A stretch of DNA of 64,000 bases, from the IMG/VR virus record IMGVR_UViG_3300011871_000042, one strand, 5' to 3'. The notes under the pieces are model-generated. The model was not told the origin of the DNA, made no database searches, and saw only the letters and a program-made list of their open reading frames with translations. The translations under genes were made by a program, and so were the position numbers. Below are positions 4,652 through 61,501 of this stretch, in pieces. This DNA comes from an uncultured virus (IMG/VR IMGVR_UViG_3300011871_000042) (Duplodnaviria > Heunggongvirae > Uroviricota > Caudoviricetes). Within the stretch, counting starts at the first letter, position 1; each line of letters opens with the position of its first letter.

Positions 4652-6637
4652 TTAATTATCATATTCTACAGTGTTACCATATTCTTCCATCCATTCTTTA
4701 CGAGGAGGAATATTTTTACCCATGATTAGCTCAAAAGCATCTATGGTATCTTGTATGTTTTCAATACCAACTTCAAATAATTTTCTTTGGCTTGGATCCA
4801 TTGTTGTTTCTTTTAACTGATCAGGGTTCATTTCTCCAAGTCCTTTGAAGCGAGAAACTGTCCAGTTGGCATCTGTAAGACCTTCTTTAGCTAAATCTTT
4901 TAAAATACTATCTCTTTCTTGTTCTGTAATAGCATAGAATATCCTATTATCTTTTTTATTACCTTTTGAACCTTTCTTAGCTGGAGCATCTATACGATAT
5001 AAAGGTGGAACACCAATATATATTCTCTTATTCCTTATTAATTCAGGGAAATGCTTTAAGAATAGTGTTAATAATAATACCTGTATATGTAAACCATCTA
5101 CGTCAGCATCAGCAAGGATAATAATTTTACCATAACGTAATTTTGAAAGATCAACCTCTTCTGGTTTTTTATCTTTATGCGCTTCAACTCCAATAGCTAA
5201 AGAAATATCTCCAACAATAAATGCTTTATAAAGATCTTCATCTTTAGCATTCCATGTATTTAATAGTTTACCTCTTAATGGCAATATAGCTTGATACTCT
5301 CTATTACGCCCTTGTTTAGCTGAACCACCTGCGGAATCCCCTTCTACTAAATACAATTCAGTTAACTCTACTTCATCACTTTGACAATCTGAAAGTTTTC
5401 CCGGTAAAGCTGAAATAGAACTTATCTTTTTACGGTCAACTTTACTTGCTTCTTTTGTTCTTCTTGATGCTTCACTTACTACCATTTCAACAATGCTTTT
5501 AGCTTCATCTAAATGATTACTTAACCAAAGCTCTAAAACATCTTTTATTAAAGAGTTTACTAACTTGTTCGCTTGTCTTGATGTTAACTTATCTTTTGTT
5601 TGTCCCTGAAACTGTGGATCAGTTAGTTTTAAAGAAAGAACAAAAGACATTCGTGACCAAATATCATCAGCTTCTATTTTTAATTTGTTAGGTATAAGAT
5701 TTAATCTCTCAGCAAAGTTCTTTATAGCTTCAAAAACACCTGTTCTTAAACCTGCTTCATGTGTTCCTCCTGCTGGAGTAGGTATGAGGTTAACAAAGCT
5801 CTCACGAACAACTTTACCATAATCACTCCATCCTAATGCTAAAGCAAAGCCTTCACCTCGACGGAACTGTTCATTTGTTTCAAGTATATAAGTTTCATTA
5901 AAGAATGGTTCATCAGTTAACCAGTTAGATTCTCCCGCTTCTTCTTTAAGATAATCAGGAATACCATTTTCATAATGCCATTCAAGAGGAGCTTTATTAT
6001 TTTTTTCATAGACAAGAGAAACGCCTGACATTAAAACAGCTTTTGCTTTTAAATATCGTTCCATCTCTGTATTACTAATATTAGGAGAGTCAAAATATTG
6101 ACCATCAGGCCAAGTTTTAACCCTTGTTCCTGTTTTATCTTTTAACTCTGGAGGAAGTTTTTTTCTTTTTAAAGGTTCAACTAAATGACCATTTTCAAAA
6201 GCAAGACTATATTCATATCCATCACGCCATACAGTAGCTTCTAAACGTTTTGATAAAGCATTAGTTACTGAAACACCTACTCCATGTAAACCACCAGAGA
6301 ATTGATATGCTCCATCACCACTTGTTTTATTAAATTTACCACCTGAGTGGAGTTTAGTAAAAATAAGTTCAACAGCAGGTTTGCCTTCTTTTTTATGTNN
6401 NNNNNNNNCACGCCCATTATCTTCTATTGAATAAGCTCCATCATCATATTGTTTTACAATAATTTTAGTAGCAAATCCAGCTAATGCCTCATCTTGAGCA
6501 TTATCGATAACTTCTTGAATGATATGGTTTGGGTTTTCAGTTCGGGTATACATCCCCGGTCTATGTTTGACTGGCTCTAATCCTTCCAATACTTCAATAT
6601 CGTCTGAATCATATTTCTTTTTCTTTTCTGTAGCCAC
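4652..6637 (-). CDS. parE: DNA topoisomerase IV subunit B (contains an N gap)
   Basis: RPGMY, EVIDN, GGLHGVG, VEGDSAGGSAKQ, PLRGK, DADVDG, RFKGLGEMN. Confidence 0.92.
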   Translation of the reverse strand: MATEKKKKYDSDDIEVLEGLEPVKHRPGMYTRTENPNHIIQEVIDNAQDEALAGFATKIIVKQYDDGAYSIEDNGRXXXXHKKEGKPAVELIFTKLHSGGKFNKTSGDGAYQFSGGLHGVGVSVTNALSKRLEATVWRDGYEYSLAFENGHLVEPLKRKKLPPELKDKTGTRVKTWPDGQYFDSPNISNTEMERYLKAKAVLMSGVSLVYEKNNKAPLEWHYENGIPDYLKEEAGESNWLTDEPFFNETYILETNEQFRRGEGFALALGWSDYGKVVRESFVNLIPTPAGGTHEAGLRTGVFEAIKNFAERLNLIPNKLKIEADDIWSRMSFVLSLKLTDPQFQGQTKDKLTSRQANKLVNSLIKDVLELWLSNHLDEAKSIVEMVVSEASRRTKEASKVDRKKISSISALPGKLSDCQSDEVELTELYLVEGDSAGGSAKQGRNREYQAILPLRGKLLNTWNAKDEDLYKAFIVGDISLAIGVEAHKDKKPEEVDLSKLRYGKIIILADADVDGLHIQVLLLTLFLKHFPELIRNKRIYIGVPPLYRIDAPAKKGSKGNKKDNRIFYAITEQERDSILKDLAKEGLTDANWTVSRFKGLGEMNPDQLKETTMDPSQRKLFEVGIENIQDTIDAFELIMGKNIPPRKEWMEEYGNTVEYDN

Positions 6638-6756
6638 GATAACTCCTAATGTCCTTAATATTTAAAGGTAAGATATATAATAATTTTTCTTTTTTCAAAT
6701 TTAAAAAAGGCCCCTGCGAGCCTTTTTTAATATATGAGTCTTTTCTTAAATGTCAA

Positions 6757-7344
6757 TTATCTTTTATTGTTTACAGAATGACCTTTAGCGGCAAAATTAT
6801 TTAACATTCTGACTAATCCTAATGAAAGGGTTCTAATAAATAAAATTGCAAATGTCGATATGATAGCAAAAGCTGCATACAGACCAAACATAGAAACAAA
6901 TTGTGAAAATCCACCAGTAATAAGTGATGTTCTATATTCAGGGAAGCTATAAAGAAAATAAAAACTAAGTAGCACAGGAAGTGAAACATAAAATAGTCCT
7001 GTCGTAATAATACTTATATTCTTAACGATAAACGATATTGGATTGATGAACATTGATAGCCTCTCATAATATGTATGTCCCGCTCCAATGATAACATTCT
7101 TTATCCACATAAAAGCGGTAGGTTTAGTTGGAGCCTTTTCATTAGTTAAATAACTTTCATTTTTTTCTATAACTCTTTCTGGTTTTACAGGTTGAGTTAT
7201 TTCAGGTTGTTCGATTATATTATTATTTTCAGGTAAAAGCGAATTATTTAATTGAACAACATTATTTTGATTTTTCTTTTCTACTATTTCTTTCGTTTGA
7301 TTAAATAGCTCATCTATTTTTATTGTATTTCTAGCTGTATTCAT
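6757..7344 (-). CDS. Hypothetical membrane protein
   Basis: 195 aa with two hydrophobic C-terminal helices. Confidence 0.7.
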   Translation of the reverse strand: MNTARNTIKIDELFNQTKEIVEKKNQNNVVQLNNSLLPENNNIIEQPEITQPVKPERVIEKNESYLTNEKAPTKPTAFMWIKNVIIGAGHTYYERLSMFINPISFIVKNISIITTGLFYVSLPVLLSFYFLYSFPEYRTSLITGGFSQFVSMFGLYAAFAIISTFAILFIRTLSLGLVRMLNNFAAKGHSVNNKR

Positions 7345-7411
7345 AAGTTTTTCGAGTTCACTAAAAGTGTGGGATAGCGCTTTGTAAATACAAACCTTAC
7401 TCGATCTCCTT
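7345..7411 (-). promoter_or_regulatory. Structured RNA element between SD and AUG (copy B)
   Basis: AAGGAGA-UCGAGU...AAAGCGCUAUCCCA...ACUCGA-7 nt-AUG; same architecture as the nadE leader. Confidence 0.7.
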
Positions 7412-7570
7412 TATATTTTTTATGCTATCTTAAAGTTTAAATTAAATATAGTTTCTTCCAAATACAATACTGTCATAAAAATAAATAAGAATTCAAATTT
7501 TATTTTTGATTGACCTTAGACTATATAATTGAGATAATATATAATAGTTAAAATAAAGGAGGGTTTATAA

Positions 7571-8270
7571 ATGCCTGTTATCGTAGCAATTGCCGGACCA
7601 TCAGGAGCCGGGAAAACTGTTTTATCTGGAATGTTAAAAGATGAAGGATACGCTGAAATAGTAAGTGTAACAACTCGTGCTCCCCGCAAAGGAGAGCAAA
7701 ATGGAGTACATTATACTTTTTTAAATGAAGAACAATTTAAAGAACTTCAAAAAAATAATGGTTTAATAGAAAGTGTACATATGAATGGAAACTATTACGG
7801 AGTTCCAGCAGAAGAANNNNNNNNNNGCCATAAGAGTATCTCAAGAAGGTCGTCCAATAGTTGTTGTAGCTGAACCTCATGGAATAGCTCAAATAAATAA
7901 GTATTGTGAAGAAAATGGATGGAAATGCTATAGAGTATTTGTTAATTCACCTATTGAATTACTTATGGAGCGTTTAGAAGACAGATTTAAAAATGATCTA
8001 AGCAATCTAAATGAACAGTCTGAAACATATGAAGCAGATAAGAATAAAGTAATAAAAGCTTATGAATCAAGAAAAGAGCATGTTCTTGTAAAAGAGCAAA
8101 ATGAATGGGTTCGTCCAGCTTATGAAAATCCCGGATTATATGAGGCTGTTTTTGATAAGTTTGATAAATCAGTACAAGAACAAGTATTAGATGTAATCAA
8201 ATTAAACGTCGATTCTTTATTACAGGAAGATAATACTGTAAAAAAAAATAATAGAATGCGTTTCAAGTAA
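7571..8270 (+). CDS. gmk: Guanylate kinase-like protein (split into two ORFs by an N gap)
   Basis: GPSGAGKT P-loop, SVTTRAPRKGE.NGVHY, GNYYG; the frame change coincides with the N run near 7817-7826. Confidence 0.8.
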
Positions 8271-15155: not shown

Positions 15156-16193
15156 ATGAGGTTTAAAATGTTTAAAACTAAAATTGAATCATCTCAAAAA
15201 TTGAAAAATAAAAACGATATAAAAATTTTTAAAAAAAGTAAAATTGCGAAAGTGTTAATAGGCATAGCATTATTTAGTGTTATAACTGTAAGTACAGCTT
15301 CATTATTCTATTCAACTCAAGTATCTCCTAAAATAAATGAAATAACTAAAACTATAAATGAAAATAAACAATATTTATCAAGTATTCCTGATTCTATTTT
15401 TAATGATGTTTATAGCGATAAAGATTTTAACGATGATATAAAATTATTTGATAGAATACATAAGACACTAACTACAGGTAAAAATTCTAAAGAAATGAAT
15501 GAGAAAAAAATAAGTTTTTTATTTACAACTCTTAACAGAATTACATATCTAAATATAGTAGAACCAACAGTAGGTTATAATAGAATCTATGAAGGTTTAA
15601 TAGTTATTCCAAATACTCTTATAAGTGATATTGATAACGAAAACAACAAAAAAATTAGAGATGAAAACTACAAATTTATGAATGAAAAATTTGGAAATAA
15701 AGGATATATTCCAGTTCTTATCGGTAATGGATTATTTCCCCCTACAAATAGTTATTATGAAAATATAATAAAAGAGTTTGATTTAAGGTACAAAAATAAA
15801 TCATATATAAAATCTTTTATTGTAAATGGAAGCGAAGTATTTAATATAGATAATGTAGAAGACAGCCCTAATGTATCAGAAAAAGATATGTCATTTACGA
15901 AAGACGCTTATGCTAAACAAATCGAAGAAATGAAATTGATTCAAAAAGATATTGAAGAAGCATATATAAATAAAGATTATGAAAAGTTAAAAATGTATTT
16001 TAAACAACAAAGAGAATTTTTTAAATACATAGCAGGATTAAATATAGGAAGCAATAAATTCTCTCCATATTATAACCTAAATAGTAAAGATAATAATTTA
16101 ATGGATATGGTAAAAATGGGATTAATTTATAAAACATTAAAAACAAAAGATGCTACTAATAAAGATGCTATAGAAAATATACATTTTTATTAA
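15156..16193 (+). CDS. Membrane-anchored hypothetical protein, paralog 1 of 3
   Basis: N-terminal TM; shared motif AY.NKDY.KLK.YFKQ. Confidence 0.75.
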   Translation: MRFKMFKTKIESSQKLKNKNDIKIFKKSKIAKVLIGIALFSVITVSTASLFYSTQVSPKINEITKTINENKQYLSSIPDSIFNDVYSDKDFNDDIKLFDRIHKTLTTGKNSKEMNEKKISFLFTTLNRITYLNIVEPTVGYNRIYEGLIVIPNTLISDIDNENNKKIRDENYKFMNEKFGNKGYIPVLIGNGLFPPTNSYYENIIKEFDLRYKNKSYIKSFIVNGSEVFNIDNVEDSPNVSEKDMSFTKDAYAKQIEEMKLIQKDIEEAYINKDYEKLKMYFKQQREFFKYIAGLNIGSNKFSPYYNLNSKDNNLMDMVKMGLIYKTLKTKDATNKDAIENIHFY

Positions 16194-16241
16194 AATAAGA
16201 TAGAAAAAAGAACCTGTTCATGAATAAAAGGAGCTATTAAT

Positions 16242-17276
16242 ATGTTAAAAGATATAATAAAAACAAGATTTGACTCGAAAAATAAAATTATAATAAAAAA
16301 AAGTAAAATTAATAAAATTTTTAGAGGATCTCTTTTTTTTATAGGTTTAACAATTGTATCATCTTTAACTTTTTATACAACAGTTATAAATCCTAAAGTC
16401 TTATCTGCTGAGAAAATAATTCAGTATAACAATCAGCATATTCAATCTATTTCTCCTGATAAAAATTACAAAGAAGTTCTTTTCAGTACGCCTTATACGG
16501 ATAATGATTTTAAAGATGATTTAATGCTTTTTACAATGGTTTATGATGAAGCTATAAAGGTTCCAGATCAAAGATTTAAAATAATAGAGAATAGGGATAA
16601 TTTTCTTTATTTTAGAACTTATATGATGATGAAAATGCTCAACAATAATTATTCTTATTCATATTATTTAGGTAAAAATAATGTTGATAAACAAGAAAGA
16701 GATAAAGTAATGACATTAGAAGAACTCTCATTACAAAATAAAAGATTGCAAGAAAGGAAGGAAGAATTACTAAATGTAACTGGAGGAAGAGAAGTAGAAG
16801 CTATTTATTCCATATTTGGATCATTTAAAATGTTTAATGCTTCATATGATAGTTTAGAGTATGCTTTTAAAAAAGAATATGGAGAAAATTCTTACTTAGA
16901 TTCTTTCACAAGAAAACCATTCGTTAAAATTGATGGCGATGAATCAGAAGATGAAAAACAATATTGGAACAAAAGATTTATAAGAGATAAAGAAATTAGA
17001 AAAAACATAATACAAGCTTATGAAAATAAAGATTATGATAAATTAAGGTTATATTTTAAGCAAAATAGAGAGTTTTTAAACTATATAGTTAAATTTAAAA
17101 TTGGTGAAGTTTCATATTCATATTTCAATAAACATGAAAGGCGTTTAGATATAGATAATGTAACTAATTTAGTTTTTTATTCCTTACTTTTTAAACAAAC
17201 CTATTTCAATAACAAAGATATAAAAAATATTAATGAAAGACAAGATAAAGTAATTGATGATTTAGCACTATACTAA
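16242..17276 (+). CDS. Membrane-anchored hypothetical protein, paralog 2 of 3
   Basis: N-terminal TM; AYENKDYDKLRLYFKQ. Confidence 0.75.
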   Translation: MLKDIIKTRFDSKNKIIIKKSKINKIFRGSLFFIGLTIVSSLTFYTTVINPKVLSAEKIIQYNNQHIQSISPDKNYKEVLFSTPYTDNDFKDDLMLFTMVYDEAIKVPDQRFKIIENRDNFLYFRTYMMMKMLNNNYSYSYYLGKNNVDKQERDKVMTLEELSLQNKRLQERKEELLNVTGGREVEAIYSIFGSFKMFNASYDSLEYAFKKEYGENSYLDSFTRKPFVKIDGDESEDEKQYWNKRFIRDKEIRKNIIQAYENKDYDKLRLYFKQNREFLNYIVKFKIGEVSYSYFNKHERRLDIDNVTNLVFYSLLFKQTYFNNKDIKNINERQDKVIDDLALY

Positions 17277-17292
17277 TAAGGAAAATAAGAAT

Positions 17293-18168
17293 ATGTTACT
17301 TTTTAAAAATAAAACCAAGACAACATACGAAATAAAAATAAACAATAAAAAAAATAATATACTAAGAAATACAGCTATAGCTATGGTTTTTTCTTTAGTT
17401 GGTTTGTCTTTTTTTGCTGGAATGAAAGTTTATAATATAGAAAATATTATTTCACATAATAAAGCAGTAATAGCATCTATTTCTGACGACAAAGATGCTA
17501 CTAATATTTTATTTTCTCAAGAATATACTGATGAGATGTTTCAAAAAGATTTGAAAAATTTTGAAGTAATGAATATAAAAAATAAAGAAACTACGGGAAT
17601 GTTTCCATTTCAACAGATAACTATATTACAAAAATATAAACCAAATATAAATACAGAAGAATATTTAAATTCACTTATAAAAGAGCATTCAAGCAAAATA
17701 ACTGAACAAGTGAAGGTGTCTGAACGTTTACCTTATGCGTTGTTAAGACTTGGTTTTACTCCTGTATCACAATATATTTATTCTGACTTAAATAAAGCTT
17801 TTAGAGATAAATATACTAACAATTCTTTTTTTGATACTTTCATCATTAAAGCATCTTTTAATAATTTAAGTTATGATGATAAAAACAGTGAAACAAAGGA
17901 TGAATTTGATAAAAAAGATAGAGAAGTAGCCCAAAGATTAAAAGTCGCTTATGATAATAAAGATTATGAAACATTAAAACTATATTTTAAACAATTTCAC
18001 GAATATATGGAATATGTAGGTAGTTTTAAGCATACTCCAATTTCAGTTTCTGGAATTAAAGAATCTAATTATAGTGATAGTATAATATCATATGGAGCAT
18101 TTGAAAAATATATAAATTACAAAAATCCAGAAGATATAGAGAAAGACATAACATTAAGTCTATTCTAA
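17293..18168 (+). CDS. Membrane-anchored hypothetical protein, paralog 3 of 3
   Basis: N-terminal TM; AYDNKDYETLKLYFKQ. Confidence 0.75.
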   Translation: MLLFKNKTKTTYEIKINNKKNNILRNTAIAMVFSLVGLSFFAGMKVYNIENIISHNKAVIASISDDKDATNILFSQEYTDEMFQKDLKNFEVMNIKNKETTGMFPFQQITILQKYKPNINTEEYLNSLIKEHSSKITEQVKVSERLPYALLRLGFTPVSQYIYSDLNKAFRDKYTNNSFFDTFIIKASFNNLSYDDKNSETKDEFDKKDREVAQRLKVAYDNKDYETLKLYFKQFHEYMEYVGSFKHTPISVSGIKESNYSDSIISYGAFEKYINYKNPEDIEKDITLSLF

Positions 18169-33881: not shown

Positions 33882-35588
33882 TTAATCTAAAAGTTTAGAA
33901 ACTGTATTTTCTGAGATAAATGTCTTCCTCGCAATAGGAATATTTCTTCCCAATCCAAATGTATTGCTTCTTACGCGAATAATAGGGCAAGATTGTTTTC
34001 TTTTAAATTCTGCGAGTTCAACTTTCTTAAGGATTTCCATTCCCTTTTCATGGCTAAATTTATTTTCTCTCAAAAACTCTTTACGTTTAAGAATACTTTC
34101 TTCATCCATAGATTTACCTTCAAGATAAAGCTGTAAAAAAGCATCAAGAATAGGGTAATCAGGTAAAGAATCTTGATCAGTCTGTCCCGGAAATAGTTCC
34201 GCTGATGGTGCTTTTTCAATAACAGAACGAGGCATTTTACCAAGATCAGCATAATGTTCCAGCATTCTGTAAACTTCTGTTTTATAGAGATCTCCAATAG
34301 GGTTTAAACCACCATTAGTATCGCCATAAAGCGTACAATAACCAACAGAGACTTCACTCTTATTACCTGTAGACAATACAAGAGAGTTATCCTGATTAGA
34401 CCATGCCATAATAGATGTTCCACGGATACGAGCTTGTAGGTTTTCCATAGTTAAACGGTTAGGCTCCTGACCAAAAGCAGTCTTAAATGCCTCAACAGCA
34501 GCTTGGAAATCATCTTTACTAGGCCGCTCCTAAAGTTTGACACCCAACATTTCAGCAAGTGCCTGACTGTCTGTAACACTACCAGCAGAAGAAATCTGAC
34601 TTGGCATCGTTACTGCTGTAATATTATCAGCCCCTAAAGCATCAACAGCTAATGCTAATACTAAAGAACTATCCGCACCACCAGACAATGCTAAACTTGC
34701 TCTTTTAATACCATTCTTATAGAAAAAATCCCTAATTCCCATAACCAACTGATGTTTTACAAATCCTATCCACTGCTCATTGTCAGTATCAATACTTGCA
34801 TCTTTATCAAATACAGATTCTCCAAGCCATTTCGTATCAAATGATTGTGTATCGACAGTTAAAACACCTTCTGAAAAGAAAGGAGCTTGTTTAATCTCAC
34901 CATTAGGTAAAGCAATATAGCTACCACCATCAAAAACAATAGTATCATTACCACCAACTTGATTCACAGAAATGTAAGGAATTTGTTTTTCTTTAGCAAT
35001 ACCCCCAAAGATCTTTTTCCTTAAATGATTTTTACGCAAACTTGACGGAGATGCGTTAATAGATAAATAAAAATCGATACCTTCACTTGCCAGATCATTA
35101 ACAGGGTTTACTTTATATGAACCATCAGTATTCCAACCATCCTCACAAATAAGAACACCAACATGATGCTCATTCAAAGAAATACTTTCAGATTTTTCTC
35201 CCGCTTCGAAATAACGATTTTCATCAAATACATCATAAGTCGGAAGAAGGCGTTTTACTGCAACAATTTTTACATTTTTACCATCTAGTAAGACAGCCTG
35301 ATTTTCATGAGACTTACCGTATAAGCGAGTATTAATTCCAACACGTCCTACAATAGCTTTTTGATTTCTTGAAGCTAACCATGAATTTAATTCATTAATA
35401 ACACTATTTTGTTCATCTAAAAAATCCTGACGATGAATCATGTCATTGATTTGATATCCACTGAAAGTTAACTCTGGACCAACCAAAAGATGATCGCATG
35501 GTACATTCAAAGCAAGTTCCTTGAATTTTTCCAGATTCCCTTTAAAATCACCAACAGTAGAATTTAATTGAATAAGAGCTATTTTCAT
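33882..35588 (-). CDS. nadE: Glutamine-dependent NAD+ synthetase, interrupted by one in-frame TAG at 34530-34532
   Basis: Nitrilase domain (PEL, KRLLP.YDVFDE, ICED) + LSGGADS, ENLQARIRG, TGNKSE, PSAEL; the two listed ORFs are in the same frame (..GVKL*ERPSKDDF..LTMEN). Confidence 0.9.
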
Positions 35589-35650
35589 ATTATTTTGCAG
35601 AAACTTATTACTAAGTTGGGATAGCCGCTTTCGCCCCTTCTGCTCTCCTT
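35589..35650 (-). promoter_or_regulatory. Structured RNA element between SD and AUG of nadE (copy A)
   Basis: AAGGAGA-GCAGA...AAAGCGGCUAUCCCA-ACUUA GUAA UAAGU-U-UCUGC-8 nt-AUG. Confidence 0.7.
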
Positions 35651-35723
35651 TTTATTTTGCTATCTTTTTATATATTTTATGGTTCTTTTTAATCTGATTA
35701 AAATAAGCCCCGAAGGGCCTATT

Positions 35724-60792: not shown

Positions 60793-60818
60793 AAAAAAAG
60801 GCCATCTGGCCTTTTTTT
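60793..60818. terminator. Bidirectional intrinsic terminator
   Basis: AAAAAAAGGCCA-TC-TGGCCTTTTTTT. Confidence 0.85.
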
Positions 60819-61501
60819 TATTTGGTAAGATTACTTCTGAAGCAAACTAAAGCATCTGGTTTAAGTTGGAAAAGTTCAGCAGGACGGTGTTTACCTGTTA
60901 AAACTTCACCTGTTTCTTCAAGAAAATCTAATTCATTTATTTTCTTTCTAAAAGCAGATTTATCAATTGGTGTACCTAAAACTTGCTCATAAACCTTTTG
61001 CAATTGTGTTTTAGTAAACTTTTTAGGCAACAAATAAACAGGAAGCGTAGAGTAGTTTACTTTATTTCTTAATCTTTCTAGTGCCATTTCAATAATGTTT
61101 TCATGATCGAAAGCAAGGCTGCCTTTTTTAATTTCATCAACAGCTTTCCACTCAATACCTGTAACGTTGCGCCCTGCCTGAGCATTTTCTACTTCTTCCC
61201 ACGGCATTAAAGATACATAAGCAATACTAATAGACCAACCACGAGAATCACGCTTAACAGAACCAAAAGTATGTAGTTGTTCAAAATAAGATGATTGAAC
61301 ACCTGTTTTTTGGAATAAAACTCTATTTACAGAATCATCTAAAGTTTCATCTTGATCGGTAAAAATAAAACCACCGGGCAAGCCTAATTTACCTGCATAA
61401 GGTTCTTTCTCTCTCTCAACAAGTAAAACATGTAGTTTTTCATTTTTTAATGTCAGGATAACAGCATCAACTGAAGCAATAGGTGTATCATATTCTTTCA
61501 T
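60818..61501 (-). CDS. nrtR: NrtR: Nudix-wHTH transcriptional regulator of NAD metabolism
   Basis: SVDAVI..L.VLLV.R..P..G..LPGGF, EQL.TF...RD.RG..IS.AY, LAFDH, FT..QLQ.VYE..LG..DK..FRKK, HRPA.LF. Confidence 0.9.
   Translation of the reverse strand: MKEYDTPIASVDAVILTLKNEKLHVLLVEREKEPYAGKLGLPGGFIFTDQDETLDDSVNRVLFQKTGVQSSYFEQLHTFGSVKRDSRGWSISIAYVSLMPWEEVENAQAGRNVTGIEWKAVDEIKKGSLAFDHENIIEMALERLRNKVNYSTLPVYLLPKKFTKTQLQKVYEQVLGTPIDKSAFRKKINELDFLEETGEVLTGKHRPAELFQLKPDALVCFRSNLTK

Follow-up and report, generated by a model that had tools for sequence, protein, structure and literature searches.

The window, by which we mean the whole 64,000-nucleotide stretch of the uncultured-virus record IMGVR_UViG_3300011871_000042, carries on its minus strand a gene for a membrane protein with a structured leader (Table 1). 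A 53-nt insert, closed by a stem of 6 bp (P1), lies between the Shine-Dalgarno (SD) box AAGGAGA and the AUG, which are 60 nt apart in the linear sequence. The arrangement from AAGGAGA to AUG over positions 7345-7411, first described in a sequence-only reading of this DNA, was borne out by direct reading. The element reaches 20 nt further 5′ than that description, up to the exact word AAGAUAGCA. The window contains this word in two places only, one upstream of each SD box considered here, at distances of 7 and 11 nt. The GAUAGC of AAGAUAGCA is a perfect complement of GCUAUC inside the insert and, as this pairing crosses P1, it would be a pseudoknot. The single-sequence folding energy of the two window leaders is unremarkable, with z values of -0.87 and -1.36.

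Table 1. Positions of the leader elements and associated genes in the window (SD, Shine-Dalgarno; P1, P2, P2a and P3, helices)
Feature	Position	Strand	Remark
Exact word AAGAUAGCA	7423-7431	-	Conserved element extends 5′ to this word
GAUAGC, 5′ arm of the long-range (pseudoknot) pairing	7424-7429	-	Inside exact word AAGAUAGCA
A-rich linker UAAAAAAUAUA	7412-7422	-	Varies among relatives
SD box AAGGAGA	7405-7411	-	Sole SD-like sequence ahead of the membrane-protein gene
P1 5′ arm UCGAGU	7399-7404	-	Read from sequence; all 6 P1 pairs change on both sides in the family
AAGG	7395-7398	-	GG at 7395-7396 pairs with CC after GCUAUC (P2)
P2a hairpin UUUGU-AUUU-ACAAA	7381-7394	-	5/5 pairs covary
Core GCGCUAUCCCA	7370-7380	-	GCUAUC, pseudoknot 3′ arm; CC, P2 3′ arm
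Exact GCTATCCCA	7370-7378	-	Inside the GCGCUAUCCCA core
P3 hairpin CAC-UUUUA-GUG	7359-7369	-	4/4 pairs covary
Single A between P3 and P1 3′ arm	7358	-	
P1 3′ arm ACUCGA	7352-7357	-	Sequence and family covariation
7-nt spacer AAAACUU	7345-7351	-	Without SD; read from sequence
Start codon AUG	7342-7344	-	Begins AUGA (presumed TCAT target on the other strand)
Gene for 195-aa membrane protein	6757-7344	-	10 homolog clusters; family unknown
Sister copy ahead of nadE	35586-35666	-	56.4 bits, E 1.3e-9 with model R2
nadE copy, AAGAUAGCA	35658-35666	-	
nadE copy, SD	35644-35650	-	
nadE copy, P1	35639-35643 with 35597-35601	-	
nadE copy, GCUAUCCCA	35617-35625	-	
nadE AUG	35586-35588	-	
NrtR-like regulator (Nudix and NrtR winged helix)	60818-61501	-	Same window as pncB-nadE

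The sister copy is positioned directly after the pncB terminator and ahead of nadE. Its parts follow in the order AAGGAGA, GCAGA, AGGG, GC-GAAA-GC, G-GCUAUCCCA, ACUUA-GUAA-UAAGU, U, UCUGC, 8 nt and AUG, with 55 nt from SD to AUG in sequence. With P1 formed, the SD-to-AUG count over the two leaders becomes 0-1 plus 7-8 nt. Reading both leaders confirmed that they share the SD, the GG and GCUAUCCCA, and that all three stems differ yet pair. The proposal that one is a second copy of the other also holds, in that a covariance model derived from three Methylococcaceae-type sequences, run over both strands of the window with filters off, finds both places (E 9e-8 and 3e-4; the third-best match has E 0.13). 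A scan of the window for the SD/stem/AUG layout returned it at only these two true gene starts.

The start of the membrane-protein gene is supported because an MNTAR N-terminus is conserved in nine of the 10 homolog clusters, the tenth being N-terminally short. The protein has no Pfam family and no informative protein Atlas match. Relatives come from four metagenome loci only (L001-L004), on contigs of up to 866 kb, with none in the viral contigs or the species-genome collection searched; L001 is the window's own sequence, and L002-L004 are syntenic relatives with 54-55% protein identity to the window. The leaders of L003 and L004 differ from that of the window mostly in the A-rich linker UAAAAAAUAUA and the hairpin loops. 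The P2a loop is shorter (UUU) in L002-L004, and L004 has ACGG at the position of AAGG. Between the membrane-protein gene and parE there is a 119-nt intergenic stretch (6638-6756), 89% identical to L003/L004 and conserved like the leader, that holds a terminator-like hairpin and the parE upstream region.

The window is AT-rich and contains an unusual mix of genes: rpoD, recA, parC/parE, recJ, RNase H/HII and a piece of a tRNA synthetase, together with TrfA, a 670-aa ankyrin-repeat protein, three DUF1963 paralogs, three paralogous unknown ORFs at 15156-18168 and many ORFs without a family. A phage or plasmid origin was considered and dropped; only recA matched in the phage and plasmid collections. 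The sequence includes 110 N in masked stretches (33882-35588 on the minus strand, 7785-7873 and 4652-6637), which split the nadE frame into pieces of 352 and 188 aa and leave runs of X in the kinase-like gene and in parE; since the N stretches cause them, these interruptions are not real gene breaks.

A pattern built on three conserved words gave 55 matches in the species-genome collection, each of which was read by eye. Eleven display the full layout, from Methylomicrobium/Methylotuvimicrobium, two 'Proteobacteria' MAGs, Alkanindiges, Acidithiobacillus-like genomes, Azomonas, Thorsellia and Marinobacterium; the other 44 are chance, coding or unrelated sequence. A Cellvibrio match (L012) was discarded, not being recovered by the covariance model, and in viral contigs a pattern of the same kind produced three chance matches only. 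The first covariance model (R1) was constructed from three methanotroph sequences alone. The second (R2) likewise recovered both window copies and identified 2, 6, 8, 3 and 2 copies per genome in five of the pattern-matched genomes. With strict filters, R2 matches were observed in 3 of 150 other genomes sampled from the class; they were also present in 5 of 40 other genomes of the family to which the genome with the Azomonas locus (G003) belongs. Model matches occur in 19 of 39 other genomes from the order of the Acidithiobacillus-like genome. The aligned copies, 43 and 28, amount to 71 and are gammaproteobacterial, with the caution that L033 and L097, identical in leader and ORF, may be one place fetched twice. 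The element is a multi-copy gammaproteobacterial family, its members near-identical inside one genome and different between genomes.

The genes downstream are unrelated. They encode, among others, a CsgG-like lipoprotein, LexA, PgsA, GlgB, NrdD, RlmE/FtsJ, CobU, GSTs, cation efflux, DjlA-like (DnaJ/TerB), LysR, SDR, TraG and TraH proteins, and Pfam domains of unrelated function are found in 31 of 40 distinct downstream ORFs. About a third of the copies abut short ORFs, not genes. No NAD-biosynthesis gene is present among the downstream genes examined outside the window. One contig (C286 of genome G002) carries four copies in 17 kb, preceding NrdD (anaerobic ribonucleotide reductase), a U32 peptidase, an SCP2 protein and a SoxA/TsdA-type cytochrome c (L073, L076, L081 and L079), and elsewhere in that order the element is again found before these same genes (L119/L123, L106/L109 and L114/L115). 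Comparison with Rfam 15 gave no family at gathering score for the window, none at E up to 10 for the membrane-gene leader, only chance-level rows, none of them a riboswitch, for the nadE leader, and no match for 14 related loci.

The structure is conserved. In the 43-row alignment, which was fitted to the model and in which many rows are related, standard pairs occupy 96.3% of pair cells as against 78.8% in shuffles, and slid controls have only 32-53% of cells paired. Both sides have changed in 15 of the 23 pairs and the covariation score is 0.446 versus 0.137, a value of 0.446 being reached in none of 500 shuffles. The covarying pairs comprise all of P1 (six), P2a (five) and P3 (four), such that the stems remain paired and covarying across the 43 aligned copies, as the sequence-only reading had anticipated for homologs. 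The GG/CC helix (P2) is 100% paired, with GC in 42 and 43 of the 43 copies. The pseudoknot GAUAGC/GCUAUC is 98.8% paired over the same copies with one-sided (wobble) changes only. It is compensated, GGUAGC with GCUACC, in the cytochrome-c leaders L079, L114 and L115. In L081 and L113/L124 it is displaced or lengthened, AUAGCGC or GUAGCGC pairing with GCGCUAU.

These pairings had been taken as the signature of a functional RNA structure. That a conserved, covarying nucleic-acid structure is present stands; its assignment to RNA does not follow from covariation, which would be equally expected from a single-stranded DNA structure used in transposition. Counts of G.U against A.C, 25 versus 17 overall, give no clear strand bias, whilst wobble changes inside the pseudoknot, 7 versus 2, favour the outward strand. 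We infer that the pseudoknot forms in RNA.

The physical context of the copies identifies the element. A tnpB gene adjoins 11 of the 71 copies, diverging 26-30 nt from the 5′ end of the motif; seven are intact and four broken or internally deleted. The intact ORF, of approximately 375-385 aa on the opposite strand, is assigned as TnpB because it has HTH_OrfB_IS605, OrfB_IS605 and Cas12f1-like_TNB domains. In 15 of the 71 copies (11 full, four partial), found in the Acidithiobacillus-like order, an iscB gene (470 aa, RRXRR and HNH) on the same strand ends in the motif. Two TnpB elements of one genome are 98.7% identical over 1317 nt, and this identity stops just after ...GAUG on the motif side and at ...GCAGTCAA on the far side. 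Copy-to-copy identity within a genome likewise ends at the AUG of the motif, and motif divergence is in step with tnpB divergence. According to Meers et al. (10.1101/2023.03.14.532601), the right end delimits the conserved RNA found ahead of iscB, and the Geobacillus IscB element ISGst5 has TTCAT as its TAM. On that description iscB runs from right end to left end, so that whether it adjoins iscB or the divergent tnpB the motif is the left end (LE) of the element, seen on its bottom strand.

Several further details concern the junctions. An A follows the ATG in 63 of the 71 copies (38/43 and 25/28), which is TCAT on the transposon top strand, and both window copies have it, AUGAAU for the membrane-protein gene and AUGAAA for nadE; the copy junctions fit a target ending in TCAT. 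The P3 loop reads CUGAAG in transposon-linked copies. Most of the seven TnpB elements compared repeat this loop in the hairpin of their right end, where it reads CTTCAG, and some have a variant of it. P3 and the right-end hairpins are putative transposase-binding hairpins, for which a shared loop would be expected. The P3 loops in the window have diverged, to UUUUA ahead of the membrane-protein gene and GUAA ahead of nadE. Intact transposons are placed exactly at the starts of cation-efflux, GST, CobU, LivM-like and HtrA-like genes, and in cases such as the cation-efflux and GST genes are wedged exactly between the native leader and the ATG. The family is the left end of TnpB- or IscB-carrying insertion sequences of the IS200/IS605 family.

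Two copies, L093 and L098, are internally deleted transposon derivatives resembling the non-autonomous PATE forms; in them the left end is fused to a piece from near the right end or to the first 32 codons of iscB. They are situated where genes for FtsJ/RlmE and for a DEAD-box helicase begin. We also note that the iscB frame runs through the whole left end in 10 of 12 IscB-linked copies with the C-terminal motif found, encoding a tail of the form ...TKIA.D.GDAG.G...AALSLPG.NAGVSR.. (IscB-linked loci are L101, 1503-2915 on the minus strand, L104, L103, L068, L102, L118, L110 and L117). The frame stops at the UGA in CUGAUG or in the target AUGA and so overlaps the host start codon, an overlap that may allow termination-reinitiation coupling or may be incidental.

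No remnant of tnpB or iscB was detected in the window by tblastn and no right-end-like sequence is present beside the window copies. The distance from motif to neighbouring gene is 57 nt to pncB for the nadE copy and about 140 nt to the divergent kinase-like gene for the membrane-gene copy, gaps so short that a transposase remnant has no room. The window copies are solo-end relics, without mobility, and the two genes share an insertion ancestry. Against L003/L004, identity is about 90% in the membrane-gene leader, 65% in the 100 nt upstream, 63% in the coding sequence and 44-47% at four-fold-like third positions of parE and recA; synonymous sites are thus saturated in relatives that retain an approximately 90% identical leader. 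The stems of the window lineage have turned AU-rich yet still pair. Since a lone end cannot transpose, conservation of the leader and continued pairing of its AU-rich stems argue for a host-level function in this lineage.

What that function might be is suggested by the geometry. Across the 43 aligned copies, without exception, 1-4 nt separate the end of the SD core (GGAG or GAGG) from P1, and a further 7-10 nt separate P1 from the AUG. The block enclosed by P1 is 47-80 nt in length, and the spacers between P1 and AUG have little or no SD. The flanking ATG is the true start, with Pfam domains from residues 1-5 in LexA, PgsA, GST, CobU, SDR and LysR proteins. Stranded raw RNA reads show that the solo leader of a methanotroph csgG-like gene is transcribed with the gene, read depth rising from a baseline of about 35 upstream of the motif 5′ end until it reaches about 190 at the AUG. 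No pile-up of read starts marks the transcription start, whose position is approximate, and GAUAGC may therefore fall outside some transcripts.

A mechanism can be proposed. Elements of this type would insert 3′ of TCAT, leaving the LE abutting ATGA on the other strand, and ATGA often amounts to a start codon plus the base that opens a codon for Lys, Asn, Thr, Ile, Ser or Arg. Such an insertion would sever the gene from its own ribosome-binding site. The LE carries an outward-facing SD, with P1 closing off 47-80 nt that contain P3 (the hairpin presumed to be recognised by transposase), P2a and the pseudoknot GAUAGC/GCUAUC stacked on GG/CC. Folding of this block would put the SD some 8-14 nt from the flanking AUG and create a split ribosome-binding site. 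A gene behind an intact transposon would be 1.3 kb away from any SD if the left end did not provide its translation signals. In the window lineage the rest of the transposon would have been lost, and purifying selection would have retained the end in the role of translation-initiation region for the membrane-protein gene and for nadE. A point against this is the precision of transposase excision, which does not by itself account for a solo end.

We consider it probable, with some reservation, that the leader is an exapted solo LE of an IS200/IS605-family element working as a split ribosome-binding site. Directly supported are membership of the family, identity as a transposon end, the junction at ATGA and the fixed geometry, together with covariation, conservation and the transcription of one homologous leader along with its gene. 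Use of this SD by the ribosome across the folded insert is what the arrangement points to, and the two window genes probably share this way of starting translation. A wider proposition, to which we would give a little less than an even chance, is that the IscB/TnpB family evolved a portable translation module in its LE, that TCAT targeting combined with this module made insertion at start codons tolerable, and that hosts then fixed stranded copies, as at nadE, lexA and pgsA.

Is the conserved feature an RNA that acts in translation, or is it selected as DNA? A relic under selection as DNA, whether as a promoter piece, a protein-binding inverted repeat or a site for transposase or a host factor, with translation proceeding without the distant SD, appears unlikely. 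There are sequences that would suit it: GATAGCAT or GAUAGCAU might serve as a -10-like box, TAGCAT has T1, A2 and T6 of such a box, GATAGC/GCTATC is an inverted repeat, and in TnpB-linked copies TTGCTA (the complement of TAGCAA in GAUAGCAA) is found at the putative -35 place of tnpB; the structure could equally be single-stranded DNA, given wobble pairs without overall strand bias. It leaves unexplained, however, why SD and AUG hold fixed positions about P1 in 43 of 43 copies and why the spacers lack an SD of their own. P1, P2a and P3 stay paired through AU-enriching changes with no transposase remnant nearby, the wobble changes within the pseudoknot lie on the outward strand (7 versus 2), and RNA depth in the methanotroph climbs, as roughly placed, from about the 5′ end of the motif and not downstream of GAUAGC. 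An RNA switch in which the fold (pseudoknot and three-way junction) responds to a general signal (small molecule, ion, protein, sRNA or temperature) and so turns the juxtaposition of SD and AUG on or off, or a device to protect the 5′ end, is also improbable in our assessment. The approximately 20 near-invariant nucleotides kept in old solo copies (GAUAGC, GG and GYGCUAUCCC) speak for it, exceeding the apparent need of simple bridging, and a 5′-terminal pseudoknot arm would suit protection from 5′-end-dependent decay. Most of these invariant bases, though, are explained by the helices of the pseudoknot and P2, no single theme unites the genes that follow, no Rfam family matches and no result points to a ligand or factor. 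For the split ribosome-binding site that we favour, the pseudoknot, P2 and P2a of old solo copies are more than bridging alone accounts for, as a plain hairpin would do; a possible extra role is compaction, protection of the mRNA 5′ end or factor binding.

The sequence-only reading had concluded that the membrane protein is co-regulated with NAD synthetase, and a metabolite-specific, NAD-related cis-regulator of both genes is the form that this idea would take. With two copies in one window, one of them ahead of nadE and directly downstream of pncB, and the gene for an NrtR-like regulator in the same window, the attraction is clear. We nevertheless regard it as very improbable, and the co-regulation claim is not sustained: the same element precedes dozens of functionally unrelated genes, none examined outside the window concerned with NAD biosynthesis, it is physically the left end of a TnpB/IscB transposon, and the nadA and pnuC riboswitch models are without a match. 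A NAD-related signal common to the two window genes is not supported; the NrtR-like regulator is a more ordinary candidate for NAD-related control of pncB-nadE. Hardly credible is removal of the insert from the RNA as a small intron-like or processed element, attractive in that deletion of the P1-enclosed block gives an ideal SD-AUG spacing and in that IStrons of the IS605 family offer a precedent for transposons splicing out of RNA. The homologous methanotroph leader reads continuously, with no joints at a 10% threshold in one organism and one condition, and group I and II introns are much larger than 47-80 nt; no ribozyme family matched.

Some simpler possibilities were also considered. Neither window leader has a stop in frame with the AUG, and gene callers placed the starts of two homologs (P0006 and P0009) further upstream; a coding leader was nevertheless ruled out by L003, where two loop indels have lengths not divisible by three and a UAG lies in frame. 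A tRNA-like acceptor end (GCUAUC-CCA) was excluded since the CCA is not conserved, the sequence being mostly CCCUCC, and CsrA-type GGA sites were dismissed for want of a conserved A after the second GG. With respect to an anti-SD role, the tnpB genes are mostly without an SD that the element could sequester.

If the proposal of a split ribosome-binding site is correct, then TnpB/IscB elements, the most abundant transposons with RNA-guided nucleases, lower the cost of insertion whilst aiming at start codons, and a replacement ribosome-binding site travels folded into the transposon end. It would represent a natural, modular case of a large structured insert between SD and AUG, with a bearing on how the 30S subunit accommodates mRNA. 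It would account for a class of gene starts with a 'missing SD' in Gammaproteobacteria and help annotators to recognise true starts and old insertions. In this window a testable evolutionary account replaces a tempting NAD-riboswitch story. Full-text searches of the literature found no account of IS200/IS605 ends with an outward SD or a split ribosome-binding site.

The element resembles the left ends of IS200/IS605 transposons in adjoining tnpB (divergent) or the 3′ end of iscB (co-oriented), in having a target ending in TCAT and a subterminal hairpin with a loop that, in most of the TnpB elements compared, recurs at the right end, and in the existence of internally deleted derivatives (L093 and L098). 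Unlike mobile left ends, the window copies have no transposase, right end or second end nearby. The outward SD, the closing P1 and the pseudoknot are not mentioned for such left ends in the passages of 10.1101/2023.03.14.532601 consulted. In Borrelia, free-standing IS605 stem-loops are kept at the RNA level beside lipoprotein genes, and evolve with RNA-type (G-U) pairing, according to Delihas (2009, PMC2775950). Both systems have transposon-end structures that outlive the transposase, are phylogenetically conserved and adjoin host genes; the Borrelia examples are single stem-loops at the 3′ ends of genes, whereas here a left end of about 90 nt is situated between SD and start codon with fixed spacing.

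IStrons (10.1101/2023.11.20.567912) are IS605-family elements fused to a group I intron. They and the present element would have in common that an IS200/IS605-type element eases the harm of its own insertion by a device at the RNA level. IStrons splice out of the transcript; in contrast, no splicing was seen in the methanotroph leader and the device proposed here would act at translation initiation. With NAD+ riboswitches (nadA, pnuC) there is a likeness in that one copy precedes a NAD-biosynthesis gene and the SD is involved. The differences are that no riboswitch model matches, that the gene contexts are unrelated to NAD and that the SD is in no conserved helix. A parallel for the proposed mode of action comes from phage T4, in which genes 38 and 25 have split ribosome-binding sites where structure between SD and AUG is looped out. 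As proposed here, an intervening structure brings SD and AUG to a working distance. The T4 cases are single short hairpins with SD and AUG about 20-27 nt apart, one gene each, whereas the element described here is a pseudoknotted three-helix fold of 47-80 nt that travels with a mobile element and recurs from genome to genome.
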